A DNA stretch of 64,000 nt from Candidatus Saccharimonadales bacterium (lineage in GTDB: Bacteria; Patescibacteriota; Saccharimonadia; Saccharimonadales; UBA4665): contig JBBRZI010000001.1 of NCBI GenBank assembly GCA_038236865.1, forward strand, positions 9,238-73,237, written 5' to 3'. The stretch's first letter is position 1. Each line of letters starts with the position of its first letter. Shown here one piece after another: positions 11,746 to 61,189 of the stretch. The notes below the pieces were generated by a model, which was not told the DNA's origin, did no database searches, and saw only the letters and a program-made list of their open reading frames with translations. The position numbers were made by a program, and so were the translations under genes.

Positions 11746-12978
11746 ATGCTTGGGCTATTCCGCCGATATAAACATGCACCTGAATATGTATTGGCGGTTA
11801 ACGCCGGCTCTTCGAGCATTAAAGCGGTGGTCTACGAGGTCGGCGCGCAACTGGAGGTTGTTTGCCAGAGCACGATTGAGAATATCGGTCAGGCGGGCGC
11901 GCTATTCGACACCCAAACTGGTTCTAACCACGACGGCACTTCCCTACCGGTTGATATCAGGACGCACACGGCGGCAATTGTCATGATCATGGGCTGGATC
12001 GATCAACAGATTAACACTGCTAATTTGCTGGCAATTGGACACCGTATCGTCCATGGCGGCCCGCAATATTACCAGCCACAGGTCATCACCGATCACCTGC
12101 TCGGGGACTTGCAGGCGTTTAGTAGCTATGACCCCGACCACTTGCCAGCTTCAATTCAACTGATCAAAAAGCTAACTAGCCTGTTTCCGAACTTACCGCA
12201 AGTGGCTTGTTTTGATACAGCGTTTTCGCATAATCTGCCCAGGGTTGCCCAGATTTTGCCGATTCCCCGCAAATATGAGCGGGAGGGCCTACGCCGTTAT
12301 GGTTTTCATGGCTTATCCTATACGTATTTATTATCGAAGCTACGCGAATTGGATGCCGAAGCCGCCAATGGCCGAGTTATCTTTGCCCATTTAGGCAGTG
12401 GCGCCAGCCTCACGGCGATTCAGAATGGCCAACCACTGGACGTTACGATGGGGTTGACGCCCGCTTCCGGTATACCGATGAGCACGCGCTCCGGTGACCT
12501 CGACCCGGGCATCGCCTGGTACTTACACCACAAAGCTGGCGTCAGTACCATTCAGTTCAACAATATGGTCAATCACCAGTCCGGTTTGTTGGGTGTTTCC
12601 GAGACTTCTGCCGACATGAAAACGCTTTTGCAAAACGAAAGTAGCGACGAACGCGCCGCTGAAGCCGTGGATCTATTCTGCTATCAAGCTAAAAAAGCGA
12701 TCGGCTCGATGGCAGCAGTGTTGGGCGGCGTCGAGACGCTGGTGTTTTCGGGTGGTATTGGCGAAAAGGCGCCGCTGATACGCGCCCGCATCTGTGCCGG
12801 TTTGGAGTTTCTGGGCCTTGAACTTGATGAGGCCAGGAATAACAGCAATGAAGCAGAGATTTCGGTGCATGATAGCCGGGTACGCGTCCGGGTGATTCAC
12901 ACGGACGAGGAAAGCGTTATTGCTCAGCAGATAGTTGGAGTCATTACTAATAGTTCACTAAATAAAAGAGGTTCATAA
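11746..12978 (+). CDS. ackA: Acetate kinase
   Basis: Contains [30 protein letters not shown]-like [10 protein letters not shown] and FHGLSY. ATG at 11746 is preferred over TTG at 11716. The stop overlaps the xfp start (TAATG). Confidence 0.9.
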
Positions 12979-15347
12979 TGGGTTTGACACAGGCACCCCT
13001 GTCAATAGAAATGCTAAGCAAAATTAATGCCTACTGGCGGGCGGCTAATTATTTATCGGTCGGTCAGATTTACCTGCGCGATAACCCATTGCTGCGGCGG
13101 CCACTGCAATACGCTGATGTGAAGCAATTACTGCTCGGGCATTGGGGGACGACTCCGGGCCAGAACTTTATTTATGTGCACTTGAACCGAGTTATCAAAA
13201 ATACTGGCTCGAGCATGATCTATATTTCCGGCCCAGGCCACGGCGGGCCGGCCATCGTCGGTAACGTCTATTTGGAAGGCACGTTCAGCGAGTTTTATCC
13301 GGAAGTTACGCAGGACGAAGCCGGGCTCAAAGAACTCTTCCGTAGCTTTTCATTCCCTGGCGGGTTGTCTAGCCACGTTTCGCCGCAGGTGCCTGGGTCG
13401 ATTCACGAAGGTGGAGAATTGGGTTATTCCTTGAGTCACGCCTTCGGCGCGGTCTTTGATAACCCGGGGTTGATTGCAGCCTGTGTAGTTGGTGATGGTG
13501 AAGCCGAAACGGGGCCGCTCGCCACCGCTTGGCACTCCAATAAATTCCTCAATCCCGCCACCGACGGTGTGGTGCTGCCGATCCTCCACCTCAATGGTTA
13601 CAAAATATCCAACCCGACAGTGTTGGCTCGGATTGAGCGCGAAGAGCTCGAACAATTATTCCGCGGCTATGGTTGGACACCTTATTTTGTGGAGGGTGAT
13701 GATCCGGAGACGATGCACCAGCTGATGGCGGCAACGCTCGACACGGTGATGGAAAAAATTAAAAGTATCCAGGCCAATGCCCGCGAAAATAACGACATGA
13801 CCCGTCCGCGCTGGCCGATGATCATCCTGCAATCACCCAAAGGCTGGACCGGACCGAAAGTACTCGATGGTCAGGTTATCGAGGGTAACTTCCGGTCGCA
13901 CCAGGTGCCGATCACGATTGACGCCGATCACCAGTCGAACGTTACCCTACTCGAAGATTGGATGAAAAGCTATAAACCGGAAGAGCTGTTTGATGCTGAG
14001 GGCCGCTTGATGCCCGAACTGGCCGAGCTAGCGCCCCACGGCGGTCTGCGCATGGGTGCGAATGACCACGCGAACGGTGGTAACCTGTTACGTGAACTCA
14101 ACCTGCCGGACTTCCGAGATTACGCAATTGATTTGCCCGTCCACGGCGTCGGTGGCGTCGGAAATGTACACGCAATTGGCCCGTACCTGCGTGACGTCAT
14201 TAATCTAAATAAAATGCATCATAACTTCAGAATTTTTGGTCCGGATGAAACGCTTTCAAACCGGCTCGACGCCGTATTCGAAGCTACTGACCGCCAATGG
14301 TTAGCCCGCACTAAAGAGCACGATCAATTCTTGGCACCAAGTGGCGCCGTGCTTGACTCGATGCTGAGCGAACACCAGTCAGAAGGTTGGCTGGAAGGTT
14401 ATTTGTTGACCGGCCGACACGGTATTCTTAACAGCTACGAGGCCTTTATCCGCATCGTTGACTCGATGGTCAACCAGCACGCTAAATGGCTCAAAATGTC
14501 GTCAGAGCTACCGTGGCGTAAAGATATTGCCTCGCTGAACTACCTGCTGACTTCTCACGTTTGGCGCCAAGATCATAACGGTTTTACCCACCAGGATCCG
14601 GGGTTTATTGACCACTTACTCAATAAAAAATCGGCGATGATCCGGGTGTACTTGCCGCCGGACGCGAACTGTCTGCTGTCGGTTACCGCCCACTGTTTGC
14701 GCAGCCGTAACTACATTAACCTGACTATTTGCGGGAAGCACGACGCCCCCCAGTGGCTCAACATGGAAGATGCCGTCGAGCACTGCAGCACCGGTATTGG
14801 GGTGTGGAACTGGGCCAGTAACGATCAAGGTGGTGAGCCCGACGTCGTGATGGCATGTGCCGGCGACGTCCCGACCATCGAAACCCTGGCCGCCGTGTCG
14901 ATCCTGCGCGAACATTTGCCTGATTTAAAAATACGCGTCATCAACGTCGTCGATCTCATGAAGCTCGAACCCGACACCGAGCACCCGCACGGTTTGAGCG
15001 ATATGGACTTTAATGAGATGTTCACGACGGACAAACACATTGTCTTTGCCTTTCATGGCTACCCGTGGTTGATCCACCGACTGACCTACCGCCGCACCAA
15101 CCGAAATTTGCACGTCAGAGGCTATAAAGAAGAGGGCACAATTACGACGGCTTTCGACATGACCGTCTTAAACGAAATGGATCGGTTCCATTTAGTCATG
15201 GACGTGATTGACCGCACGCCTGGAACGAGCGAAGCCGGCGCCAACCTGAAAGAACTGATGGAGAAAAAGCTAATCGAGCACTCGAACTACATTGCGGTTC
15301 ATGGTGTCGACATGCCCGAAGTCCGCGACTGGACGTGGGCAAAGTAA
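12978..15347 (+). CDS. xfp: Xylulose-5-phosphate/fructose-6-phosphate phosphoketolase
   Basis: 789 aa with characteristic [37 protein letters not shown] and [15 protein letters not shown] motifs. Confidence 0.95.
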
Positions 15348-15533: not shown

Positions 15534-16091
15534 TTAGTCGTCGCGCTCACTGTTCGGTGAAGTTACTGGCGGCAGGGTTTGCTGCGTGACTGGCGGAGTG
15601 CCAGCAACGACGTTGAAGTCGATGTATGGCAAACCGTTATAGTTGTCGATGACGGCGACCAGTCGATAGGTGCCCGGAGAATCAAACAGTTTTGGCCATG
15701 ATGCAAAACTGCCAGTCACGCTACTGTTGGCGGGTGTCTCTATTTGGCGCTGCTCGTTCTGGCAACGCTGGGCATCGGTAGTATCAGTCACGCGCTGCCA
15801 CTTGTGGTTCACAAACTTATAGACATCCAGCGGTTCAGTCGGGCACTCATTGGTGGCGTAGATGGAAGTATTGAGATTGTTCTGGACGGTAAAAACGACC
15901 GGTTCGCCGACAATATATTGGGACTGAGAAACGCTGACGTTAATCGTGCCAACGGGTAGCGTGTGGGTTCGGAATTGATCACCAACCCAGTAAAGCAGCC
16001 CGACCATTAGTCCAAACAGGACTAGGTAGCCCATCGCCCATATCGCCCGGCGGCGCCAACGGTGTCGCCAGTAATGGAGTTCGCTATTCAT
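15534..16091 (-). CDS. Cassette A gene 4: N-terminally anchored extracellular beta-rich (Ig-like) two-Cys protein
   Basis: Start set at the ATG at 16091, which forms an ATGA overlap with the upstream stop. It has one TM (AIWAMGYLVLFGLMVGLLYWV). It is a paralog of the N-terminal half of 27062..28003 (YIVGEPVVFTV / YLVGEPVSLTI; GTYRLVAV / GSYRIALH; LPYIDFNV / LPYVDFEV). Confidence 0.6.
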   Translation of the reverse strand: MNSELHYWRHRWRRRAIWAMGYLVLFGLMVGLLYWVGDQFRTHTLPVGTINVSVSQSQYIVGEPVVFTVQNNLNTSIYATNECPTEPLDVYKFVNHKWQRVTDTTDAQRCQNEQRQIETPANSSVTGSFASWPKLFDSPGTYRLVAVIDNYNGLPYIDFNVVAGTPPVTQQTLPPVTSPNSERDD

Positions 16092-16831
16092 ATCGTTTTG
16101 GCTCTCCATAGTCGATAGACGCCAGCCCCGGCAATGCCGATCGCTACGAGCATCCAGAGCAGGCGGAATGGACCGTCGGCTAAGTCGGTGCCCAAGTAAA
16201 GCGCGTGGACAAAGACGAACAGCATGATGATGTAGGACAGCAGGTGGATGAGTTTCCAAAGATAAGGCTTTTTCTCGACCCACAGCAGCGACGTGATGAT
16301 GACGATTGTGACGAGGTAAAAAGCCAGGACTCCGAGCGCCACGTAAAACGAACCGAGCTGTACGTTCCCGATGACCAAGGGTTTATAAGGTGATAGCCAG
16401 GGCACTAAAAGCTGCCAAATCGTAAACGGCACAAAATGATCAAACAGTAAGCTTACTAAATGGGCAACGACCGCCAGCCCGAAGGCGATACCGAGCGCCC
16501 GGTGCGTCGCCCAAGCCGTGATGGGGTCAAGGAATCTAAAGCTGTAGCCAGTCACCTGGCCAATGCCCGATAAGAGCAGTATAACGAGCGCGGCGGCGGC
16601 AACCAGACCCGAACCGCGGGCGACGTACCACGGCCACGAAGTCTTGGCCCGCTCCGTTAAGCGCTGGGCGACACTGGTGCCGGCGAGTGGTTGGGCTGTC
16701 GCCGCCTTTGAACTGCCCGACTCAGCCGCGGCTGAACCGACGCTGGCGACTGTGGCTAGGCTCGCGAAGATGGCGACCGCGCAGAGGCCATACACCGCCG
16801 CTTTAATTAGTTGTTTGAATGCCATTGCCAT
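16088..16831 (-). CDS. Cassette A gene 3: ferric-reductase/NOX-type (FRD, MsrQ-like) 6-TM heme-binding subunit
   Basis: Has HRALGIAFGLAVVAH (H-x13-H) and HLLSYIIMLFVFVH (H-x12-H). The N-terminus looks like a signal peptide or anchor. Confidence 0.75.
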   Translation of the reverse strand: MAMAFKQLIKAAVYGLCAVAIFASLATVASVGSAAAESGSSKAATAQPLAGTSVAQRLTERAKTSWPWYVARGSGLVAAAALVILLLSGIGQVTGYSFRFLDPITAWATHRALGIAFGLAVVAHLVSLLFDHFVPFTIWQLLVPWLSPYKPLVIGNVQLGSFYVALGVLAFYLVTIVIITSLLWVEKKPYLWKLIHLLSYIIMLFVFVHALYLGTDLADGPFRLLWMLVAIGIAGAGVYRLWRAKTI

Positions 16832-17747
16832 ACACTTTCGTTAGTATCTTACCATGCATCTCATACTGTAGTAGGAGCGCTAAGGCCCCTAACGGCTGAA
16901 TTGAGTTCCAGGCGGTCTTCAGGCCGAGCACGATCGAAACTTTTGCCAACACATCGGCTGTCATGGCAGTGGTACCATACACCGTCGCCAAACGGACGTT
17001 GCTGACGGCTGGGAGATTGGTACGGGGGTCAATGATATGATGCCAGTCAACGCCGTTATGTTGGCCGCGATGGTTCAGCACACTTGAGCTGGCCAGTCCA
17101 AAGCTTGATCCACCGGCAGCAAGTGAGTACGGACTATCGTGTTCGAGGTTAGCCGCGTCCTGGATAGCGACGTGCCACGGCTGGGACAGTTCGTTATAGC
17201 CGGCCGCCACGATGTCGCCGCCGAGCGATAGCCAATAGCCGCCGAGCGTAGCGGGTAGCGTCTGAGCCAGCTTGTCGGCCAAGTAGCCCTTACCAATGCC
17301 GCCCATATCTAAAGCCGTGCCATAGGGTATCTCTGCCCAGTCGTCGCCAATCGTCAAATTGTCTGCTGCTACCACCGTCTTTGCGCTGTGATCATCGAGC
17401 GGGTCATGTTCGTAACCAGGCACGTGCGAATGGCGGTAGCCGGCTGCTTGGAGGGCCGGTAGTATAAACGGGTTATATAGATTACCGGTTTGCAGGCTTA
17501 ACGTGCGCGCCGCCACCAGTAAATCATGAAACTCCGCTGTTACGGGCGTCCGAATGCCGGCTGCATTGTTGAATTTGGATAGTTCGCTGGCCGGTAGAAA
17601 ACGGCTAAACTGACGTTCGAAATTGAACGTCAGTTGCCAGAGTTTTTGAAAGATTTCAGTTGTGGTAGGGCTGGTTGCATCGCTGACGAGCACAAATGTT
17701 GTTTGGCTGCCGAGCGCTATAGCCGTTTGGCTGGAGCTTTTTAACAT
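16803..17747 (-). CDS. apbE: Cassette A gene 2: FAD:protein FMN transferase (ApbE family)
   Basis: Contains FERQFSRFLPASELSKFN, GTALDMGGIGKGYLADK and HHIIDPRT motifs. No N-terminal hydrophobic signal or lipobox. Confidence 0.85.
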   Translation of the reverse strand: MLKSSSQTAIALGSQTTFVLVSDATSPTTTEIFQKLWQLTFNFERQFSRFLPASELSKFNNAAGIRTPVTAEFHDLLVAARTLSLQTGNLYNPFILPALQAAGYRHSHVPGYEHDPLDDHSAKTVVAADNLTIGDDWAEIPYGTALDMGGIGKGYLADKLAQTLPATLGGYWLSLGGDIVAAGYNELSQPWHVAIQDAANLEHDSPYSLAAGGSSFGLASSSVLNHRGQHNGVDWHHIIDPRTNLPAVSNVRLATVYGTTAMTADVLAKVSIVLGLKTAWNSIQPLGALALLLQYEMHGKILTKVYGNGIQTTN

Positions 17748-18772
17748 GGTGCGGAACCGCAGGTCCGAGGTGTCGGCGTGGTAACTGGTGTGATAGGCGT
17801 GGCCGGCGCCGTCGCTGGCGCGGCAGACGTATTGGGCGGTAAACCATTAACCAGGCTATCGAGGTTAGCTTGACGGGTGCTATTTACCTGAGCGGCGGCG
17901 GCAGCTTGCGCTGAATTGGCTTTTAGAATCGGTGGTAGGGTTTTGAACAAGTCGCTGAGCATGATGATAAAGCTGCCTAGAACCACCCCAACTGCCGCCA
18001 AGGCGTACATGTTAAACGGCCAATCGCGTAGTTCGCCAGTTTGGCGGTTAGGCCCCTGGCTAAAGGCTTCCGTGACGATTTGTTGTTTGTCGACGCCACG
18101 ATGTGCCAGCAGTGCCCTCATCCCTTTCATAAACCCGGCCGGGCCACAAATAAAAAAGGTGTGTTCCGTAAAAGCCCCCTCAGTTACAGACTGCAATAGT
18201 TCCGGACTGATTCGGCCCGTGAACACCCTTGCCTGGTTTAAGCGGTTAATCGGGCCACTGCTGACCGTGAAGATCACTTGAAAGTTGGGATTAGCTTGCT
18301 CGAGTTTGAGTAGTTCAACAGCAAAGGGCATATCGAGTTGGTTCGGGCAACTATAGACCAGGGTAATGCGTGTCTCTGACCGGGTATACGCGGCGTGCCT
18401 GATCATGCTCATAAAGGGGGTAATACCGATTCCGCCAGCCAGCAGTACAATTTGCGGTTGGTGGGTAGGTTCAATCACGAAGCCACCGAAAGGCCCGCGT
18501 ACCGATACGCCGTCGCCTGGCTTAAGCCCAACGATGGCCCGCGTGAAACGGCCGCCGATGTGCATACTAAACTGCAGCGTACCGGTTTCCTCGGGTGCAG
18601 TCACAATCGAAAAGCAGCGGGCCGGCGTTGGGCGGTATTTTCGCCTAAAGCTGAGTGCAGCGTACTGGCCGGCCTCGTGCTGAAAACTGTCTGAGGGGGT
18701 CTTGGCTTGCAGCGTGAGCAACTGTGTCGTTGGCGTCAGTTTCTCGTTGGTCAGAACAGTATAGCGGCGCAT
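17741..18772 (-). CDS. Cassette A gene 1: FNR-type FAD/NAD(P)H oxidoreductase with C-terminal TM helix and Pro/Thr-rich tail
   Basis: Contains RCFS (RxYS), GPFGGF, LLAGGIGITPFMSM and FFICGPAGFM. These are followed by a TM helix (YALAAVGVVLGSFIIMLSDLF) and the tail ...PATAPATPITPVTTPTPRTCGSAPC. Confidence 0.8.
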   Translation of the reverse strand: MRRYTVLTNEKLTPTTQLLTLQAKTPSDSFQHEAGQYAALSFRRKYRPTPARCFSIVTAPEETGTLQFSMHIGGRFTRAIVGLKPGDGVSVRGPFGGFVIEPTHQPQIVLLAGGIGITPFMSMIRHAAYTRSETRITLVYSCPNQLDMPFAVELLKLEQANPNFQVIFTVSSGPINRLNQARVFTGRISPELLQSVTEGAFTEHTFFICGPAGFMKGMRALLAHRGVDKQQIVTEAFSQGPNRQTGELRDWPFNMYALAAVGVVLGSFIIMLSDLFKTLPPILKANSAQAAAAAQVNSTRQANLDSLVNGLPPNTSAAPATAPATPITPVTTPTPRTCGSAPC

Positions 18773-19684: not shown

Positions 19685-20161
19685 TTAGCCGTTCAACGGC
19701 TTAAAGAGCGCGTCTACCAAGTGCTCGGCTTGTTTGTAAAAGCCCGGCCGCTGTTCTTTTTCGAGTTTGATGGTGGCGTGCAGTTTATGCATGGCTGGGT
19801 GGACTTCAAGCGTCGCGAGCAACTGTTTAAACTCGGTGTCGATGGCAGACAGCTCCCCATCCGTTAAGGATTCGAGACCAATAAAAGTATCACGAGCTTT
19901 TTTGTCGGCCGATATCAATTCGTTGAGCTTGAGCTGGATGGCTTTACTTTCACGATACTGGGTGTTCTGGATAGAAAACACCATGATAAAGATAATAACA
20001 TCGGTAATAACCGTGATGGTTATGAGCCAAGTGTTAGAAAAGTGATAATAGGGTCCCGTAAGGAGCCAGGCCAGCACGCCGGCAATCGACAGCATGAACG
20101 CATTGGTCGAGCTCGCTAAACGTGACACGGCAATAGAGAATTGTTGTAATGGTTTTTTCAT
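19685..20161 (-). CDS. Low-affinity iron permease (Fet4-like) family membrane protein
   Basis: 158 aa with two TM helices. NTWLITITVITDVIIFIMVFSIQNTQYRESKAIQLKLNELI resembles the bacterial low-affinity Fe permease family, recognised by eye. Confidence 0.55.
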   Translation of the reverse strand: MKKPLQQFSIAVSRLASSTNAFMLSIAGVLAWLLTGPYYHFSNTWLITITVITDVIIFIMVFSIQNTQYRESKAIQLKLNELISADKKARDTFIGLESLTDGELSAIDTEFKQLLATLEVHPAMHKLHATIKLEKEQRPGFYKQAEHLVDALFKPLNG

Positions 20162-20233: not shown

Positions 20234-20761
20234 CTAGCGCAGCACCCAGCTTTTATCCGGTTGCACGGATAAAACTGCAAAATCTACCGACAGCACGTGC
20301 CCAAAGTAAGTTTGGTCGGCGTCTTCGGGTACTGGCAGACTGGCGGCATAGACTACCTCCAAAGGTTTGCCATCTGGCTGGGCTAGTTGGAGCGTTGCCC
20401 GTCTAAGATCTATTGCCGTCAGTATGCCCTGAGCTACGATTGATTTGTCTTGTGGATTTGTCAGCTGAAGCTCGAGGCTGGCGGCGACTAAGTTTTCAGC
20501 TGAGCTGGCTCGCCAGCTCAGCTTATTCTCCTGAATGGCTATTTCTGTAGTCAGATCCTGGTAGACTTCAAAGGCGTACACCGCACTTTTAGTGCTGCGG
20601 TCGGGTAGCTCGAGACGGTGTATATGCTCGGCTAAATCATCAACTTGCGCCTGCTTGCTGGCGGCGTGGCGCAGTATTTCACCGGCGATGCTGCCGAGCC
20701 AGGCTTGCTCGCGCGTTGAGGTGGCAAGTTTGCGTTCACTGTTGGATGTACATTTACTCAT
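20234..20761 (-). CDS. Hypothetical protein
   Basis: 175-aa ORF with no recognisable motif. Confidence 0.45.
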   Translation of the reverse strand: MSKCTSNSERKLATSTREQAWLGSIAGEILRHAASKQAQVDDLAEHIHRLELPDRSTKSAVYAFEVYQDLTTEIAIQENKLSWRASSAENLVAASLELQLTNPQDKSIVAQGILTAIDLRRATLQLAQPDGKPLEVVYAASLPVPEDADQTYFGHVLSVDFAVLSVQPDKSWVLR

Positions 20762-21302: not shown

Positions 21303-21468
21303 AAAGTCACGTCTCCATACTCATCCAAATAGTATAGCAGCTAGACTTTAGCAGTTTCTACACATAATCAAATCTTGGATGTGTCTTGGAGGCGTGGTTT
21401 TGGCAGGCTACTACGGACTGTCGTAAAAAATACTTGCATCTGTGCGTCAAATACTACATACTAATTTC

Positions 21469-22467
21469 ATGGAAAACGCCACCGGACCTTTACCCTCCGA
21501 AGAATCGAGGCCTCAGCTCCAACCTACAGAGGCTAGAGCGTCACTATTTGATGCAGCAGCAGAAAACCAGGTTCTCAACCTAGAGCCAATGCTGCTTAGC
21601 CAACGGCCGACTGAAGCTGCAGCGACAGCACCGGACATCATTCCGCGTTACCGAATTGCGAGTGCGTACATCCAGGTAGCATTAGTCAAAGATAATTTTA
21701 CTAAAAAGGATGTTGTTGACTATCTACTTGAACGAGGCGTGAGCCGGCAGGATGCCAATGAAGGCCTACGGGCGCATGTGTATCTTGGCAATTATGCCCT
21801 ACGGGCTGCCCAAGCCGGGGATGCCGCCAGCCGAATTATTATGCCGCAACCTACCAAACGGCCCAAGTTCGACAGACAGGCAGTCACGCTACCGCCGCAA
21901 CGAGTCGTCACCCCAGCCGAGCGCCAGGCGGCTATTGCTGCGCAGCCAGCGATCGATGATCGCCACTGGTTTCCCGGCACCGTCATGGTTGGTTCGCAGG
22001 TGCCGCCCGAATTGCTGACGAACATGCAACGGGGCTTTATTGCCATGCTCGAGCCCAGTAGCCTGGCGTCTGCCCTCGTGCCGCTCGAGGATACCGCGTA
22101 CAGTGGCATCGTCTACCCCCATATCCGACATCAGCCGGGCCAACGCAACCTGCGCCACGATCTGAATATTCTAGCCGATGATACGGTGCGAGTCTGCGGC
22201 ATGAAAGACGTGGTGCTGGACGACGAAGAAACGCTGATCGTTAATATCCTGTTAACATTTGGCAAGTTCGGTCTTATGACCAGTGCTCTAAGCGAAGCGG
22301 GTATCAGCCAGCCTTGGCACGCCATGAAGGCGTTACGGCACAAAATGAATCGTAACGCGCACGGTGTTATCAACAAATATCTCCTCGGCACAGTCCCGGT
22401 AAATGTCTTAGGGCCCGCTCCAGCCCAGGTTCGGATAAAAGATATGCGCTCGCCGCTATCGGCTTAA
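21469..22467 (+). CDS. Hypothetical protein (possible C-terminal HTH)
   Basis: ORF starts at GTG 21442 or ATG 21469. The C-terminal ETLIVNILLTFGKFGLMTSALSEAGISQPWHAMKALRHKMN loosely resembles a LuxR-type HTH. Confidence 0.45.
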   Translation: MENATGPLPSEESRPQLQPTEARASLFDAAAENQVLNLEPMLLSQRPTEAAATAPDIIPRYRIASAYIQVALVKDNFTKKDVVDYLLERGVSRQDANEGLRAHVYLGNYALRAAQAGDAASRIIMPQPTKRPKFDRQAVTLPPQRVVTPAERQAAIAAQPAIDDRHWFPGTVMVGSQVPPELLTNMQRGFIAMLEPSSLASALVPLEDTAYSGIVYPHIRHQPGQRNLRHDLNILADDTVRVCGMKDVVLDDEETLIVNILLTFGKFGLMTSALSEAGISQPWHAMKALRHKMNRNAHGVINKYLLGTVPVNVLGPAPAQVRIKDMRSPLSA

Positions 22468-24167: not shown

Positions 24168-25403
24168 ATGGGTAACTATAAGGTAATAGCAAGTCAAGCG
24201 ATTACCCCTTCTACACAACTTCTGACATTGCAATACGTTCAGGGTGAACGTATGGTGTTCCGGCCGGGCCAGTACGCAGCCATTAATGGCTACAAGGGGC
24301 ACCGGGCGATGCCGATTCGCTGTTTTTCATTTGTTACCTCGCCGACTGATGCGGAATTGCTCCAATTCGCGATGCGCGTCAAAGGTCACTTTACGAAAGC
24401 TGTGGCCAATTTGCCCGTCGGCGAACAGGTACATGTGCAGGGCCCCTACGGTGGCTTCGTCATGAATGGTCACGAGGAAGCCAAAGTTGTCTTTTTGGCC
24501 GGCGGAATCGGCATTACGCCGTTCATGAGTATGATCCGATTTGCCACGATTACCCATGCTGCGACTGATATGCGACTGGTCTACGCTGCCCAATCCCAGG
24601 ATGACATTCCGTTTCTAAATGAACTGAAATGGCACAGAGGAAAGAACCTTAACTTCACCCCAACATTCGTCGTCTCCAAAGGGCCACGAAACAGCTTAGA
24701 GGGCTATCAGTCGACCGAGGGCCGGATTACGAGCGAAGTACTGGAATCGATTGTTGGCGTGACATATGCCGATACAGCCACGACTTTTTATATCTGTGGT
24801 CCGCCGCCGTTTATGAATGGCATGCTACAGCTACTGCTGAGCAAAGGCATCAGCCGATCGCGTATTAATACCGAGGCCTTCAGCCAGGGCAAGAACCGCC
24901 AGACCGGTTTGGTGCGGGATTGGCCATTCAGTATGTATGGCCTGTCCGCGCTCGCTACCGCTGCGGCGCTGCTGGCGATTACGACGGGTGATTTTATCCG
25001 GACAGTACCCAGATTGACGACGACCAAACATTCACTTTCCCTCGGCGACAATGGTACGGTCAATCAGCGCCAATCCGACATTGATGCGCTCATCAACTCC
25101 TTACCGGCGAGCAGTACTAGTGGTCAGTCTTCACCAGCCGTCCAGTCCGCCGTGGCCGCGGCGACGCCGCCGGCCCCGGCCGTCAACCCGTCAACCAGCG
25201 TGGCCATACTGCCCTTTAATCATCTGACCACTCCAGTCGCGAAGGCGCCAGCTTCCGGAACGGCAACATCAACGTCGACCCCAACGTCGACCTCAACGTC
25301 GACCCCGGCACCGACCCCCACTCCCACTCCAGCACCGACCCCAAAGCCAACCCCTGCTCCGGTATGTACGACCAGTCAAAGTGGGGTAACGACGTGCAAA
25401 TAG
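24168..25403 (+). CDS. Cassette B gene 1: FNR-type FAD/NAD(P)H oxidoreductase with C-terminal TM helix and long Pro/Thr/Ser-rich tail
   Basis: Contains RCFS, GPYGGF, FLAGGIGITPFMSM and FYICGPPPFM. These are followed by a TM helix (YGLSALATAAALLAITTGDF) and a tail ending ...PTPAPVCTTSQSGVTTCK. Confidence 0.8.
   Translation: MGNYKVIASQAITPSTQLLTLQYVQGERMVFRPGQYAAINGYKGHRAMPIRCFSFVTSPTDAELLQFAMRVKGHFTKAVANLPVGEQVHVQGPYGGFVMNGHEEAKVVFLAGGIGITPFMSMIRFATITHAATDMRLVYAAQSQDDIPFLNELKWHRGKNLNFTPTFVVSKGPRNSLEGYQSTEGRITSEVLESIVGVTYADTATTFYICGPPPFMNGMLQLLLSKGISRSRINTEAFSQGKNRQTGLVRDWPFSMYGLSALATAAALLAITTGDFIRTVPRLTTTKHSLSLGDNGTVNQRQSDIDALINSLPASSTSGQSSPAVQSAVAAATPPAPAVNPSTSVAILPFNHLTTPVAKAPASGTATSTSTPTSTSTSTPAPTPTPTPAPTPKPTPAPVCTTSQSGVTTCK
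25270..25305. repeat. 3 x 12-bp in-frame tandem repeat (CAACGTCGACCY) inside the B1 tail
   Basis: caacgtcgaccc / caacgtcgacct / caacgtcgaccc, read directly. It encodes part of TSTSTPTSTSTSTP. Confidence 0.85.
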
Positions 25404-26353
25404 TTCTCCGGCACGATACCAAGCAGGCGCTTGGAGGCGACGTGACAGTTGTGCTGGCCGTCGATGCTCGACGCATTGTCGAACCGGTATTTCGGCGTAT
25501 TTGGGAACAAGTCTTTGGATTTGAACGGCAATTTAGTCGATTTTTACCGGACAGTGAGCTGTCGCAGTTCAATCGTGGCGCCGGAGTGCGCCAGGATATT
25601 TCGGAAGCATTTGCTACATTGTTGACCGCATCCCAAGCGATGAGCCAGGCTACCGACGGCCTGCATAACCCGTTCATCTTGCCAGCGGTCCAGCGGGCGG
25701 GCTATCTCGATTCGGCGGTCGCCGGCTATCGTGCTGACAAGTCAGATGATTTTCGTGATCGGGCCGTCGTTTCGGCTGATCATTTGCAGCTCGAAACCAA
25801 CCGACAGGCCACCATCCCCTATGGTACCGCCCTTGACCTGGGCGGTTGCGGCAAGGGCTACCTGGCCGATGCCATTGCCGATGAACTTGATCGAGCTGAC
25901 CTGGTGGGGTATTGGGTGTCGCTCAGTGGTGATATGGTCACCTGTGGCTTTGACGAACAGGGCCAACCGTGGGAAACAGGTATTGTTTCGGCCCGCACGC
26001 CACAAGCCGAATCACCAGCATATGTGGCTGGGAACGGTGAGCGATTGCATATCGCAACCTCCGGCACGTTCCTTCGGCCTGGGCAGGCCAAACTGCGGGG
26101 GCATCACCTGATCGATCCCCGAACCGGCCAAGCGGCGCAAACCGATATTAAGCTGGCGACCGTTATCGCGCCTTCGGCTATTTTGGCCGATGTATTGGCC
26201 TCAGCGGCGACTATCATTGGCAACCAGCAAGCGATACCGTATCTGAAGTCTCGGGGTGCGCTCGGAGCGGTTATACAGACGGCCCGACGTGATTATACAT
26301 ACGGTACGCACGTCCAGACGCGTGCATCAAGGCAGGTAGCGCATGTCAGCTAG
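25364..26353 (+). CDS. apbE: Cassette B gene 2: FAD:protein FMN transferase (ApbE family)
   Basis: Contains FERQFSRFLPDSELSQFN, GTALDLGGCGKGYLADA and HHLIDPRT. Start is ATG 25364 or GTG 25394. No signal peptide or lipobox. Confidence 0.85.
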   Translation: MYDQSKWGNDVQIVLRHDTKQALGGDVTVVLAVDARRIVEPVFRRIWEQVFGFERQFSRFLPDSELSQFNRGAGVRQDISEAFATLLTASQAMSQATDGLHNPFILPAVQRAGYLDSAVAGYRADKSDDFRDRAVVSADHLQLETNRQATIPYGTALDLGGCGKGYLADAIADELDRADLVGYWVSLSGDMVTCGFDEQGQPWETGIVSARTPQAESPAYVAGNGERLHIATSGTFLRPGQAKLRGHHLIDPRTGQAAQTDIKLATVIAPSAILADVLASAATIIGNQQAIPYLKSRGALGAVIQTARRDYTYGTHVQTRASRQVAHVS

Positions 26354-27065
26354 AGTAGTCTCGCTGGTGTTAGCCCTCGTTGTGGCCGTTGGTGTCGGTA
26401 GTGTTTTGTTGACACCCGGTCACGTATTCGCAGCTGAGAACTCCGGCAATGTAACGGTCCAGGTCGTACCTGGCGAAAAGCTCAGCAGTCGTTTGCAAGG
26501 GCAGCTCAAAGTGTCATGGCCCTGGTACGTGACCAGAGCATCGGGTATCGTGGCGGCCGCGACTCTGATGATCCTGCTCTTGTCGGGAATCGGTCAGATT
26601 ACGGGGCGGACTTTCCGCCTACTCGATCCGTTAACAGCTTGGGCGTCGCACCGCGCTCTGGGCATCGTCTTTTCAGGAGCGGTGTTTATTCATATTTCCA
26701 GCCTATTATTCGATCATTTTATTACCTTTAATGTCTGGCAACTACTGGTGCCTTGGCTGTCCGGCTACCGCTCAACTCACTGGCTGGGTTTGAACGTCGG
26801 TTCTATATATGTTGCGATGGGTATCATCGCTATGTATATGACGGCCGCAATTGTCATCACTTCGCTCGTCTGGGTAGAGAAAAAGCCGGCGTTGTGGAAG
26901 CTGGTGCACTACTTATCCTATGTAACGATATTTTTGGTGTTCGTGCACGCTTTATACATTGGGACTGATATGGCGCACGGCTTTTGGCGCTGGTTATGGG
27001 TTGGACTGAATGCTCTGATATTCTTGGCGGTGGTGGCGCGGCTATGGCGAGTGAGAACCATATGA
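26343..27065 (+). CDS. Cassette B gene 3: ferric-reductase/NOX-type 6-TM heme-binding subunit
   Basis: Has HRALGIVFSGAVFIH (H-x13-H) and HYLSYVTIFLVFVH (H-x12-H). It overlaps the end of ApbE by 11 nt. Confidence 0.75.
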   Translation: MSARVVSLVLALVVAVGVGSVLLTPGHVFAAENSGNVTVQVVPGEKLSSRLQGQLKVSWPWYVTRASGIVAAATLMILLLSGIGQITGRTFRLLDPLTAWASHRALGIVFSGAVFIHISSLLFDHFITFNVWQLLVPWLSGYRSTHWLGLNVGSIYVAMGIIAMYMTAAIVITSLVWVEKKPALWKLVHYLSYVTIFLVFVHALYIGTDMAHGFWRWLWVGLNALIFLAVVARLWRVRTI

Positions 27066-28003
27066 GAGTCAGTGAACTTATCCATGTCGAAGATCCTTGG
27101 CACAGCCGACTGCGCTGGCTGGCGGTGTTCGTCGTATTGTTCGTGGGCATCGTGTTCGCTTCGTTCGTGGCCCTCGATCGTATTCGGACCTACTCGCTGC
27201 CCACGGGCGGTATCCAGCTCAGCACGCGGTATACGCAGTACTTAGTCGGAGAACCGGTCAGCCTCACAATCAAAAACGGTTTTAATAGCCCGATATCGAT
27301 CATTACCAGCTGTCCATCCGGACCATTCGCGGTCTATCGATCGGTAAATAATAAATGGGTACGTATTCATGACACGATTTCGGCGACAAATTGCTCCGCT
27401 CTGCCGGGAACGTTGCAGCTACCGGCCGCCGGATCGTCAACGCTGTCGTTAAGCGATTGGTCGCAGCTGTTTGCGACTGCCGGCAGTTACCGGATCGCGT
27501 TACACGTCCAGTATACCAATGCCTTACCGTATGTTGATTTTGAGGTCATGACGCCACCAGCGCCTTACGTCGCTAAAGCGCCTGTACCAACCCCTGTTCA
27601 GTCGCCGCAGATAGCAAGTACTCCCAGGAGCGGCACTACGACGCAGTCAACTCCGCTACCGACCAGCCCAAGCTCGACACCGACACCGGCATCGACCCCG
27701 ACACCCTCCACGTCAAGACCGCCGCAGACAATCACGCTGTACGTCAATTCGGCTGGTAATTATTTGACCACAAACATCAGCATGTACGTTGGGGACACGC
27801 TTAAGATTATGTACCAAGCACCGTACGGTGATGAAGTAATTACCAGTTTTAGCCCGATCGCCGGTACGACCACGACCATCGGCTCGATGAAAGTGGATTC
27901 GGAATTCAGGAGTACCAGCCGCGTCTTATCGTCAGCCGGGCATTGGACCTTCAAGGCCGTTGACCATAATGGGAATAGCGGTAGCCTGGTAGTATTACCC
28001 TAG
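27062..28003 (+). CDS. Cassette B gene 4: anchored extracellular Ig-like two-Cys protein with Pro/Thr linker and extra C-terminal beta domain
   Basis: Start set at the ATG at 27062 (ATGA overlap with the upstream stop, the same geometry as cassette A). It has one TM, a paralogous beta domain, a PT-rich linker and a roughly 90-aa C-terminal domain. Confidence 0.6.
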   Translation: MRVSELIHVEDPWHSRLRWLAVFVVLFVGIVFASFVALDRIRTYSLPTGGIQLSTRYTQYLVGEPVSLTIKNGFNSPISIITSCPSGPFAVYRSVNNKWVRIHDTISATNCSALPGTLQLPAAGSSTLSLSDWSQLFATAGSYRIALHVQYTNALPYVDFEVMTPPAPYVAKAPVPTPVQSPQIASTPRSGTTTQSTPLPTSPSSTPTPASTPTPSTSRPPQTITLYVNSAGNYLTTNISMYVGDTLKIMYQAPYGDEVITSFSPIAGTTTTIGSMKVDSEFRSTSRVLSSAGHWTFKAVDHNGNSGSLVVLP

Positions 28004-29415: not shown

Positions 29416-29491
29416 TGGCTGGGGCGGAGGGATTCGAACCCCCGAAATGCCAGTACCAAAAACTGGTGCCTTACCACTTGGCCACGCCCCA
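29416..29491 (-). tRNA. tRNA-Gln (anticodon UUG), CCA encoded
   Basis: Hand-folded cloverleaf. The acceptor is TGGGGCG/CGCCCCA (U1-A72). The anticodon stem is CCAGT/ACTGG with loop TTTTGGT. The T arm is GGGGG-TTCGAAT-CCCTC. It ends GCCA. Confidence 0.9.
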
Positions 29492-44594: not shown

Positions 44595-44793
44595 AAGGAA
44601 GTATCTCCTGCTTATGTTGTTGGTGCATAGTGATCGACCACAGCTATGCGTTAGCTTGTTTCGTTGCCAAACAAAAACGTCTTTAAACGGTTGGTTCAAA
44701 GACGTTCAAACACTCTTTGCAGAGTTTGTTTGTACCTCGGCGACATAATTAAGGCCTAAGCCCGTCGCTGTCTCTGGCAACTTACTGGGTATT
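44595..44793 (-). promoter_or_regulatory. Structured rplJ leader with terminator-like hairpin (candidate L10-type autoregulatory leader)
   Basis: The minus strand has AACGTCTTT-(13 nt)-AAAGACGTT-TTTGTTTGG (44667-44706) and a second hairpin CAAACAAACTCT-GCAA-AGAGTGTTTG upstream. Function is inferred only. Confidence 0.3.
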
Positions 44794-46104
44794 CTACACT
44801 ACTGCAGGCTGTCGGTCAATCTGTTGGGCCGCCGCCAGGTCGTATAAATAATCCAGTTTTGAGCCATCGATATTTTTACCGGTCCGCAAAACGGCAAATC
44901 TGCCGACCGGTCCATGCTGACGAACGTACTGCCACAGGCCAGCCAGCGCAACTGCGCCGGTCGCTTCGGTCGGAAGCCCATTCTGGTGGAGCTCGACAAC
45001 CGCCCGAGCGATGGATTGGTCGGTGACGTTAACCATAGCCACCGCCGGCGTTAGGTTTTGAAGAATATTGAATGTCTGGTGACCGGGTTGGACGGCAGCC
45101 CCCTCGACGACGGTTTTGAGGTCGGGCGATTCAGTGTATTCTCCGGCCCGCAGCGAACGCGTCATACCATTGGCCCCCACCGGCTCGACCCCAACGACCT
45201 GAATGTCCGGTCGAACTTCGCCGAGGTACCGGGCAATACCGGCCAGTAACCCACCACCGCCAACCGGCACGACTAGATGGGTGAAATCGGCGTTCTGCTG
45301 CAGCAGCTCGGCGGCCAGTGTCGCCTGCCCTATCATGATCTGTTCGTCGTCATAAGGCGCAATAACCGTTAACTCCGGACGATCATGTAGTAATTGGCGG
45401 CAATAGCGGCTGGCGGCCTCGAACGTCGTACCGGCTAGCACCACGTGCGCACCGTACGCTTCCACACCGGTAACTTTTACGCGTGGCGTATTGACGGGCA
45501 TGACTAGCGTGGCGGCCGTGCCGAGCAGTTGGGCACTATGGGCGACGCCTTGGGCGTGGTTGCCGGCACTGACGGCAATAACCCCACCAGCTCGTTGCTC
45601 GGCGGACAATTGTCGCAGGCTGTTGTAGGCGCCACGTATTTTAAAGGCCCCGACTGTTTGATCGGCATCGTGTTTCATCTGCATGGTAAGACGACTACCA
45701 TCCGACGTCGAGGTATAAGAGCTGAAGTTCGTACGAATCACGACAGTGGCCATCGCTTGTTGGGCCCGCAGCACCTCGAGCGCGTAGGGTCCAAGTGTCT
45801 CGACGCCGGCTACACCCAAGCGTTGCGCGGCTTTTTCGATGGCCAGTATGTCGCGCCGGGCCGGCGAATCATAGCCGTAGCCGAACATCGGGTCACCCGG
45901 CTCGTCTTGGTGGAGTCGCTGCCAGTCAGCTGGCAAAACGGCGTAGTCGACTCGACTGACGAGATCATCCGGTATATCCGGGAACCCAGCGACCTCTGCA
46001 GCCGCGGCGAGGTGTAATGTCGATGGCAGTTGGCGAAACTGGCGCGGCACCCGTTGGTGATAGGGCTGAAGTTCGTTATAGAGCGCGGGGCTGAGTTCTG
46101 GCAT
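44794..46104 (-). CDS. PLP-dependent threonine/serine dehydratase with N-terminal extension
   Basis: Has the PLP-lysine motif GAFKIRGAYN, GNHAQG and a GGGGL glycine loop. ATG at 46104 is preceded by GGAGG (5-nt spacing). The TTG at 46119 in the ORF track lies inside the upstream terminator tail. Confidence 0.8.
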   Translation of the reverse strand: MPELSPALYNELQPYHQRVPRQFRQLPSTLHLAAAAEVAGFPDIPDDLVSRVDYAVLPADWQRLHQDEPGDPMFGYGYDSPARRDILAIEKAAQRLGVAGVETLGPYALEVLRAQQAMATVVIRTNFSSYTSTSDGSRLTMQMKHDADQTVGAFKIRGAYNSLRQLSAEQRAGGVIAVSAGNHAQGVAHSAQLLGTAATLVMPVNTPRVKVTGVEAYGAHVVLAGTTFEAASRYCRQLLHDRPELTVIAPYDDEQIMIGQATLAAELLQQNADFTHLVVPVGGGGLLAGIARYLGEVRPDIQVVGVEPVGANGMTRSLRAGEYTESPDLKTVVEGAAVQPGHQTFNILQNLTPAVAMVNVTDQSIARAVVELHQNGLPTEATGAVALAGLWQYVRQHGPVGRFAVLRTGKNIDGSKLDYLYDLAAAQQIDRQPAVV

Positions 46105-61114: not shown

Positions 61115-61189
61115 AGGGGTATAGTACAGCGGTTAGTATAAAGGTCTCCAAAACCTTAGACCGTGGTTCGATTCCACGTACCCCTGCCA
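61115..61189 (+). tRNA. tRNA-Trp (anticodon CCA), CCA end encoded
   Basis: Hand-folded. The acceptor is AGGGGTA/TACCCCT. The anticodon stem is AAGGT/ACCTT with loop CTCCAAA. The T arm is GTGG-TTCGATT-CCAC. It ends GCCA. Confidence 0.9.

Follow-up and report, generated by a model that had tools for sequence, protein, structure and literature searches.

A duplicated four-gene cassette of Saccharibacteria that probably encodes a split NOX-type transmembrane reductase

Why does a member of the Saccharibacteria keep two diverged copies of the same four redox genes, and what might the second copy do? Saccharibacteria are ultrasmall epibionts with a very reduced redox metabolism, and their iron acquisition and disposal of reductant are poorly understood. 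The two copies, here called cassettes A and B, lie in a 64,000-nucleotide window (the whole stretch of DNA that we analysed) of a Candidatus Saccharimonadales genome (assembly GCA_038236865.1, contig JBBRZI010000001.1, positions 9,238 to 73,237), and a tblastn search finds exactly two copies in it. We consider it somewhat probable that cassette B, an intact and anciently diverged paralogue of A, encodes a split NOX-type transmembrane reductase of the Saccharibacteria, which belong to the candidate phyla radiation (CPR), with Fe(III) as the most likely acceptor. The genes, numbered by subunit, are as follows.

Positions 24168-25403, plus strand: B1, FNR/Fre-like NAD(P)H:flavin dehydrogenase with a C-terminal transmembrane (TM) helix and an external tail
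Positions 25364-26353, plus strand: B2, ApbE-family FAD:protein FMN transferase
Positions 26343-27065, plus strand: B3, membrane cytochrome with a ferric-reductase domain (FRD)
Positions 27062-28003, plus strand: B4, type II anchored surface protein, Ig-like
Positions 17741-18772, minus strand: A1, B1 paralogue; its tail is shorter and its terminal loop, TCGSAPC, degenerate
Positions 16803-17747, minus strand: A2, B2 paralogue, ApbE without a signal peptide
Positions 16088-16831, minus strand: A3, B3 paralogue, bis-heme FRD
Positions 15534-16091, minus strand: A4, paralogue of the N-terminal part of B4 (TM helix and Ig-like domain only)

A sequence-only reading of this stretch had described B as a four-gene redox cassette in the same order as A, and the open reading frames (ORFs) and their collinear homology bear this out. 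B1 to B4 are free of internal stops at the coordinates given in that reading, and their gene calls are also present in public collections for a 99,557-bp contig. The motifs that it quoted are all retained in the translations: RCFS, FLAGGIGITPF and ICGP in the dehydrogenase, FERQFSRFLP, GKGYLAD and HHLIDPRT in ApbE, and HRALGIVFSGAVFIH (His-x13-His) and HYLSYVTIFLVFVH (His-x12-His) in B3. The ATGA overlap of stop and start that it placed at the B3/B4 junction (27062-27065) can be read directly, as can its counterpart in cassette A, where the A4 ATG overlaps the A3 stop, and the two fourth proteins do open with M-x(1-2)-SEL (MNSEL and MRVSEL).

The two copies are homologous well beyond these motifs. 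Pairwise blastp alignments gave 41.8% identity over 323 aa for subunit 1 (E 1e-86), 43.6% over 307 aa for subunit 2 (E 6e-82), 57.0% over 214 aa for subunit 3 (E 5e-85) and 37.9% over 177 aa for subunit 4 (E 5e-41); the estimate by eye had been roughly 40-50%. All four genes align collinearly and nearly over their full length, far beyond chance and beyond anything that generic cofactor motifs would explain. At the DNA level, similarity is confined to short stretches, as had been proposed: five collinear patches cover 458 of 3,836 nt, and megablast found no match between the cassettes. The copies also differ in length, with 411 aa in B1 versus 343 in A1, and 313 aa in B4 versus 185 in A4.

This divergence is old. 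Synonymous differences between A and B are saturated (pS 0.75-0.81), so that a dN/dS ratio between the copies is uninterpretable, but against orthologues dN/dS is 0.07-0.19 for every measurable gene and 0.08-0.19 for the B-type genes. B-type genes are 71-83% identical to those of locus L017 and 66-79% identical to those of L001, and A-type genes are 71-80% identical to those of L007. In a neighbour-joining (NJ) tree of 132 FRD subunits, built with one outgroup and carrying no support values, A3 and B3 fall into separate clades, each with orthologues from other metagenome-assembled genomes (MAGs). Contig JBDTSH010000016.1, of which L007 and L017 are two stretches, has the same arrangement as the window, with A on the minus strand followed by an iron permease, a DUF1801 gene and B on the plus strand, and a 14.7-kb metagenomic contig also holds both cassettes. 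The presence of both cassettes in other contigs and of orthologues for each means that these genomes separated only after the duplication, or after an old transfer between Saccharibacteria lineages, had taken place. Cassette B is thus an old duplicate of A, with both copies under purifying selection, much as the sequence-only reading had supposed; a recent repeat is rejected by the lack of a megablast match and by the saturated pS.

How the second copy arose is harder to say, as duplication within the lineage and acquisition from another Saccharibacteria lineage cannot be told apart with these data. Lateral acquisition of one copy, which would make the cassettes coexisting xenologues, seems to us plausible although not the likelier course. 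The A3 and B3 clades are well separated in the tree, with many single-copy lineages between them, and mixed A and B best matches across the genes of L003 and L014 suggest part exchange, as does L006, in which the first three genes are A-like and the fourth, including its C-terminal domain, is B-like. Yet the GC content of both cassettes equals that of their surroundings, the tree offers neither support values nor a second outgroup, and the shared two-cassette synteny of the L007/L017 contig and the 14.7-kb contig would make any transfer itself old. A decaying or non-functional cassette B, an assembly duplicate or a chance resemblance of motifs is, by comparison, very improbable. We found no support for it, the sole hints being that A3 scores slightly under its Pfam cut-off and that the copy without the terminal loop is A1, not B1. 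The ORFs are intact, and with all catalytic and cofactor motifs kept in both copies neither is a pseudo-cassette; B-type dN/dS against orthologues points the same way, no near-identical DNA is shared between the copies, and the same gene calls recur in independent assemblies. Taken with the collinear alignments, these results led us to reject both a pseudo-cassette and chance motifs.

The cassette is not peculiar to this genome. For each of the four proteins, the homologues are from MAGs of Candidatus Saccharibacteria, and the same gene order with overlapping junctions recurs in L001, L003-L006, L009-L012 and L014-L017. L007 has the same order minus ApbE, which brings the further loci with the cassette order to 14, and L008 and L013 are partial at a contig end. 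At 90% identity, the FRD subunit forms at least 315 clusters and the dehydrogenase subunit at least 266, and the named members of these clusters are mostly CPR or Saccharibacteria. The flanking genes differ between loci, which indicates that the four genes form a self-contained unit.

Subunit 3 would be the electron conduit. B3 matches Pfam Ferric_reduct (PF01794) with 31.5 bits against a cut-off of 28, and a hydropathy scan shows an N-terminal signal-like segment followed by five TM helices. Its putative heme ligands form two His pairs, H103/H117 (x13) and H189/H202 (x12), and all four are at least 95% conserved in 121 subunit-3 sequences. Judged from the sequence, this 13/12 spacing is the bis-heme pattern of the NOX/FRE type, which contrasts with the single heme of MsrQ and STEAP proteins (PMC12525009). 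The N-terminal segment may be a cleaved signal peptide, which would leave a mature protein of five TM helices with an external N terminus. By eye, AxA-type sites follow the first hydrophobic segment (VFA|AE and AAA|ES, at 26343-26440 and 16740-16831), and orthologues have similar ones.

Subunit 1 would supply the electrons. Both B1 and A1 match Pfam FAD_binding_6 and NAD_binding_1, NAD_binding_6 being above its cut-off only in A1 (31.0 versus 22.2 bits) with B1 just under (21.4 bits), and the NCBIfam and PDB matches of B1 are FNR-type reductases and the dehydrogenase domain of SpNOX. B1 consists of a predicted cytoplasmic dehydrogenase (aa 1-245), a TM helix at aa ~254-277 (nt 24927-24998, from a hydropathy scan) and a 134-aa tail rich in Thr, Ser, Ala and Pro that is predicted to be external; tails of this composition average 116 residues in the family. 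After the dehydrogenase motifs RCFS, GGIGITPF and CGP comes a conserved juxtamembrane EAFxQ...Q[TS]G....WP before the TM helix, and the tail itself carries a conserved, helix-like RQxDLDxLVNxL segment. Over 120 subunit-1 homologues, the net charge drops from +2.2 on the N-terminal side of the TM helix to +0.2 on its C-terminal side, consistent with an N-in/C-out topology, and the positive-inside rule supports this orientation for subunits 1 and 4 alike. The tail of B1, whose terminal sequence is CTTSQSGVTTCK, ends in a short loop.

Positions 25365-25397, plus strand: C-terminal Cys-bracketed loop CTTSQSGVTTC of B1 (aa 400-410), read from the sequence; candidate ApbE target or docking peptide

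A terminal Cys loop is present in 119 of the 120 homologues, typically as CTT[ST][QPA]SGV[T]TC plus 0-1 residue, and 86 of the 120 contain the motif [ST]G[AV][ST], which, across some 310 kb of ORFs from the window and the loci, is confined, as a loop motif, to subunit 1. A1 ends in TCGSAPC (17741-17770), a degenerate form common to two close homologues (P0213 and P0223); unlike A1, the A-type subunit 1 of L007 keeps the full loop. The loop codons lie where the first and second genes meet, and there the start of B2 is ambiguous: an ATG at 25364 gives a 40-nt overlap with B1, and a GTG at 25394 an overlap of 10 nt. L001 and L003 show an ATG at the position equivalent to GTG 25394, and one public gene call uses the shorter form. 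With the ATG 25364 start, the Cys-loop codons would be dual-coding with the ApbE N terminus (25364-25403). It is unlikely that a programmed frameshift joins ApbE to the external subunit-1 tail, given that at this junction the genes of some loci overlap, by up to 40 nt, and those of others lie up to 28 nt apart, and that the stop after the Cys loop is conserved. Inside cassette B, a scan for promoters and terminators gave matches at chance level only. Elsewhere, a divergent sortase gene lies directly upstream of the cassette in L011 (523-1215) and L012 (3133-3780), loci of a clade in which subunit 1 has no terminal Cys loop.

Subunit 4 belongs to a small, fast-evolving family, with 206 representatives among 1.84 billion proteins. 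A short cytoplasmic N terminus precedes the TM helix, which in B4 shows as a hydropathy peak at aa 20-38 within a helix (aa 12-43) of the AlphaFold2 (AF2) model. There follow an Ig-like β-sandwich at aa ~46-165 with two invariant Cys (AF2 pLDDT ~80), a disordered Pro/Thr/Ser linker at aa 176-217, and a second β-sandwich at aa 221-313 with pLDDT > 90. Paired invariant Cys are found in the external parts of both subunit 1 and subunit 4. B4 matches no Pfam family, the match of A4 to Big_14 (PF20251) is weak (E 0.009, 16.4 bits versus a cut-off of 27), and Foldseek returned only generic Fn3, MG and Ig-like sandwiches (TM scores of 0.4-0.46). We rejected the idea of a hidden FMN-binding domain in this subunit, as the AF2 model is all-β and Ig-like, the Foldseek matches are generic and no Ser or Thr is invariant. 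A Foldseek match of the whole of B4 to two-domain laccases (TM score ~0.2, r.m.s.d. 14-17 Å) is treated as an artefact of two β-sandwiches on a flexible linker, and the C-terminal domain lacks the Cys for a type-1 copper site.

The sequence-only reading held that B4 has gained this C-terminal domain. The domain is indeed a confidently folded β-sandwich; its gain is not established, because fourth genes of other lineages carry it too. It is present in B4, L001, L004 and L006 (pLDDT > 90), whereas A4 and many others have nothing or an acidic tail in its place, the fourth genes of L003 and L014 end in poly-acidic tails, and L005 (6633-7526) and L008 (1290-2123) have a different small module (GGSI.VEY...I.). 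A loss, or a swapping of modules, is just as possible as a gain. The same sandwich (27722-28000 in B4) recurs at the C terminus of large proteins with 4-5 tandem cytochrome b5-like heme domains and on fn3/DUF4215 surface proteins (P0338, P0341, P0373, P0309, P0315 and P0321), and so looks like a mobile surface module that is sometimes joined to other heme proteins. The Ig-like N-terminal domain, in turn, is related to the N-terminal extracytoplasmic domain of YidC (60KD_IMP) homologues (profile matches P0355, P0360 and P0366), and one YidC-fused relative scores 26.4 bits on Big_14. With the divergence between A and B lying mainly outside the cell, in stalk length, terminal loop and the extra C-terminal domain, the two complexes may serve different acceptors or conditions, and the pair amounts to a natural experiment on such specificity.

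The remaining subunit is a conventional ApbE by sequence. B2 matches Pfam ApbE (PF02424) with 154.9 bits (E 4e-45) and A2 with 143.4 bits (E 1e-41), against a cut-off of 25.6. An alignment with Salmonella ApbE (chain 3PND) pairs B2 residues 30-299 with residues 30-302 of that protein and shows both GKGYLAD and HHLIDPRTG to be conserved. GKGYLAD and HH[IL]IDPRT are kept throughout the cassette ApbE family, and A2 shows ASSS where most members show A[TS]SG. By hydropathy and sequence inspection, no hydrophobic N terminus, lipobox or TM helix was found in 12 family members (A2, B2 and ten orthologues), which predicts a cytoplasmic enzyme.

From the homology, domains, cofactor motifs, conservation, selection and neighbourhood of these genes we infer a topology, an electron path, an acceptor and an ApbE target. 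Subunit 1 would oxidize NAD(P)H at its cytoplasmic FNR/Fre-like flavin domain, held at the membrane by its own TM helix. Electrons would then pass to the inner and on to the outer heme b of subunit 3, and leave the cell at an outer face that would bear the Ig-like ectodomain of subunit 4 together with the Pro/Thr stalk and Cys loop of subunit 1. ApbE would act as a maturation enzyme that attaches FMN covalently at some site in the complex. The acceptor would be Fe(III), possibly also Cu(II), and the resulting Fe(II) would enter through a neighbouring Fet4-like permease, or through Nramp in relatives. A cassette that is often present, and duplicated in this lineage, would in this way provide a self-contained route by which electrons from NAD(P)H cross the membrane.

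Assimilatory Fe(III) reduction is the most likely role, on the strength of gene neighbourhood and analogy. Cassette A has an iron permease gene 0.9 kb upstream on its own strand, and L017/L007 have a PF04120 orthologue in the same position.

Positions 19685-20161, minus strand: Fet4-like low-affinity iron permease (Pfam Iron_permease PF04120, E 2e-33), between the cassettes

Immediately after the B-type cassette in both L001 and L002 comes an Nramp gene, with a Cu-ATPase gene and one for a fused NOX-like protein beside it. L001 (GCA_038207115.1) has HMA proteins and a copper-type P-type ATPase before the B-type cassette (L001:1-3658), and Nramp followed by a fused NOX-like protein with Ferric_reduct, FAD_binding_8 and NAD_binding_1 domains after it (L001:11111-14120), so that, from their predicted products, these surroundings form a metal-homeostasis island. 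A published survey connects some ApbE-associated MsrQ-like clusters with Fe(II) transporters and proposes them as assimilatory iron reductases (PMC8238504), and an apbE transposon mutant of Bifidobacterium, which is only indirectly relevant, grew poorly with ferrous-iron chelators (PMC5449479). The permease beside A, Nramp in L001 and L002, the published iron link of MsrQ-like clusters and the Bifidobacterium mutant together make Fe(III) the best guess, and the adjacency to Fe(II) importers offers a testable model of iron acquisition.

Several observations weigh against this assignment. As acceptors, Fe(III), O2, Cu(II), flavins and quinones are not told apart by these data, and electron disposal or O2 reduction fits the same machine. 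Iron-transporter neighbours occur only in this sub-lineage; about ten other loci adjoin unrelated genes (MscL, SAM synthetase, sortase, GNAT, MFS and a HAD-family hydrolase), and apart from the iron and metal genes of close relatives we found no functional neighbour that recurs from locus to locus. Nor did we find a Fur-like, DtxR-like or other palindromic operator common to the regions upstream of A and B, which have only lineage-conserved, promoter-like -10 elements. A3 scores 26.9 bits on Ferric_reduct, just below the cut-off of 28, and a PDB search with the B3 sequence gave no significant match. Searches with Pfam and NCBIfam found no FMN_bind, DUF2271 or DUF3570 domain in the eight cassette proteins, and the canonical-like flavinylation motif of the subunit-1 loop is predicted to be external whereas ApbE is predicted to be cytoplasmic. 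That loop is, moreover, degenerate in A1 and absent in L010-L012 and L014, all of which retain ApbE.

The same machine could instead serve electron disposal or the production of reactive oxygen species (ROS), either by flavin-assisted extracellular electron transfer (EET) or by NOX-type reduction of O2; it would then regenerate NAD(P)+ for a fermentative epibiont or release superoxide at the host interface. We regard this joint reading as a sizeable minority possibility. The bis-heme His pattern is of the NOX type, the cassette is kept in many loci with no metal transporter nearby, association with ApbE is typical of flavin-based EET in Gram-positive bacteria (PMC8238504), and a gene for phosphoketolase, a marker of fermentation, adjoins cassette A. 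Set against this are the adjacency to metal transporters in two independent forms, PF04120 and Nramp, and the absence from the loci of any quinone, Ndh2, EetAB or PplA-like component; O2 reduction itself cannot be judged from sequence. A module that works as electron donor for an extracytoplasmic repair or redox enzyme, in the way that MsrQ serves MsrP, or that takes part in thiol/disulfide chemistry through its Cys pairs, is improbable. A split Fre-like reductase with an FRD does mirror the Fre-MsrQ pair of Escherichia coli (PMC12525009), invariant Cys pairs lie in both external parts and a VKOR gene is found near the cassette in L016, but none of the 17 loci contains MsrP, a molybdoenzyme or a thioredoxin-like partner, and the FRD has four His ligands where MsrQ has one heme and an FMN.

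How does a putative Fe(III)-reducing complex of this design compare with known systems? MsrQ-like systems have been defined operationally as a PF01794 gene within five genes of an ApbE or FMN-binding gene (Meheust 2021, PMC8238504). B3, above the PF01794 cut-off, adjoins B2, and A3 lies just below that cut-off. As in these systems, a PF01794 cytochrome is clustered with apbE and a NAD-binding module, and electrons would pass from cytosolic NAD(P)H to the outside (PMC8238504). Their NAD-binding domain is usually fused to the cytochrome, whereas that of the cassette is separate and C-terminally anchored, and they are mainly actinobacterial, whereas the cassette is found in Saccharibacteria and has an extra conserved Ig-like fourth subunit. 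The published ApbE-linked MsrQ-like systems typically, although not obligatorily, also encode an FMN_bind-domain protein as substrate (PMC8238504); the cassette contains no such gene. It also lacks the extracytosolic signal, a signal peptide or lipidation on ApbE or on FMN_bind, DUF2271 or DUF3570 proteins, by which that eLife survey retained clusters; CPR were strikingly under-represented in the survey (PMC8238504). An ApbE without a signal peptide would have been filtered out, and with the under-representation of CPR this suggests that the cassette family was probably missed. The survey's supplements, as searched, hold no Saccharibacteria entries, and among the papers searched we found none that links Saccharibacteria with ferric reductase or ApbE or that describes the cassette.

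E. coli Fre-MsrQ provides a second likeness, a separate FNR-fold flavin reductase of the FAD_binding_6/NAD_binding_1 type feeding NAD(P)H electrons to a stand-alone FRD cytochrome (PMC12525009), and the cassette has both. MsrQ has one heme and a non-covalent cytosolic FMN and feeds the molybdoenzyme MsrP (PMC12525009), whereas the cassette FRD keeps all four heme-ligand His; the reductase of the cassette is membrane-tethered and co-operonic and comes with ApbE, unlike Fre-MsrQ, and no MsrP-like gene is present. With fused NOX/FRE proteins, both the eukaryotic ones and bacterial SpNOX (PDB 8QQ7), the FRD shares His-x13-His and His-x12-His; the dehydrogenase is detectably similar to that of SpNOX (E ~1e-9), and its identity with the fused NOX-like protein from L001 is 23-31%. 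NOX/FRE enzymes are single polypeptides, with no ApbE, in which TM6 leads into a C-terminal FAD/NADPH dehydrogenase domain (FAD_binding_8/NAD_binding_6). The cassette instead has a separate FAD_binding_6/NAD_binding_1 gene, whose dehydrogenase precedes its own TM helix, running in to out, and continues outside the cell. The FmnB/PplA/Ndh2/EetAB system of Listeria resembles the cassette in its monoderm envelope, its ApbE in the operon and its extracellular acceptors, which include Fe(III) (PMC8238504, PMC9973259), but uses a quinone, the PplA lipoprotein with FMN_bind, an extracytosolic ApbE and FAD export, none of which has a counterpart in the cassette. An ApbE without a signal is also known from Klebsiella pneumoniae, in which the cytosolic enzyme flavinylates a soluble fumarate reductase (PMC12052999); the target there is a canonical FMN_bind domain bearing Dxx[ST]GA[ST], and the cytoplasmic parts of the cassette proteins have neither. 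With its split and tethered NAD-binding module, bis-heme FRD, signal-less ApbE, Ig-like subunit and Cys loop, and without an FMN-binding domain, the cassette is not a plain member of the MsrQ-like, Fre-MsrQ or fused NOX/FRE groups.

What, then, would such an 'orphan' ApbE modify, having neither a signal peptide nor a known substrate domain? Neither the Dxx[ST]GA[ST] motif nor an FMN_bind domain was found in the cytoplasmic parts of the cassette proteins, and the canonical [ST]GA[ST] elsewhere in the window gives just two incidental matches in unrelated ORFs. The nearest recurring sequence is the ...QSGVT-TC loop of subunit 1, a conserved terminal peptide close to an engineered minimal flavin tag, in which V replaces A and the Asp is missing. 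Motifs with V in place of A keep ~50% of flavinylation, removing the Asp matters little, and seven-residue flavin tags work best at protein termini (PMC12052999). The Cys loop is therefore a candidate ApbE target, against which it counts that 33 of the 119 loop-bearing homologues lack a Ser or Thr after SGx, or an Ala or Val after SG; its predicted external position, and its decay or absence in cassettes that keep ApbE, also tell against it. An alternative candidate is cytoplasmic loop B of subunit 3, LSGxGx[IV][TS]Gx[TS][FY], non-canonical as a flavinylation motif, in which T87 and T90 of B3 are Ser or Thr in at least 95% of 121 sequences; its LSGxGxxTGxT motif is absent from the fused NOX-like protein of L001.

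That the cassette has a new kind of ApbE substrate, either an external flavin-tag loop or covalent FMN on the TGxT of loop B, is a tentative proposal that we hold to be possible rather than likely. In the former version, cytoplasmic ApbE would flavinylate CTTxQSGVTTC before export, and the tethered FMN at the tip of the Pro/Thr stalk, which might be long enough to span the cell wall, would carry electrons from the outer heme to distant acceptors. In the latter, cytoplasmic ApbE would put covalent FMN on the invariant TGxT of the heme subunit, giving a covalent-FMN split NOX. The organism that hosts the cassette presumably depends on scavenged flavin. If true, a substrate of either kind would widen ApbE biology past FMN_bind-type domains and would explain why CPR seem devoid of flavinylation systems. 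L007 lacks an ApbE gene in its A-type cassette, where genes 1 and 3 are just 45 bp apart (L007:4792-6633), while the B-type cassette ~10 kb away on the same contig keeps its own (L017:7167-10996). Such a loss points to ApbE as a maturation factor that works in trans, and a single ApbE may serve both complexes in JBDTSH010000016.1.

Other features of the window lie around the cassettes. The phosphoketolase gene (XFP) at 12978-15347 is directly beside cassette A, and two ORFs without a Pfam family lie between the cassettes, at 20234-20761 (175 aa) and 21442-22467 (341 aa). The window further holds tRNA genes at 29419-29491 and 61115-61186, and an L10 ribosomal-protein leader at 44663-44795.

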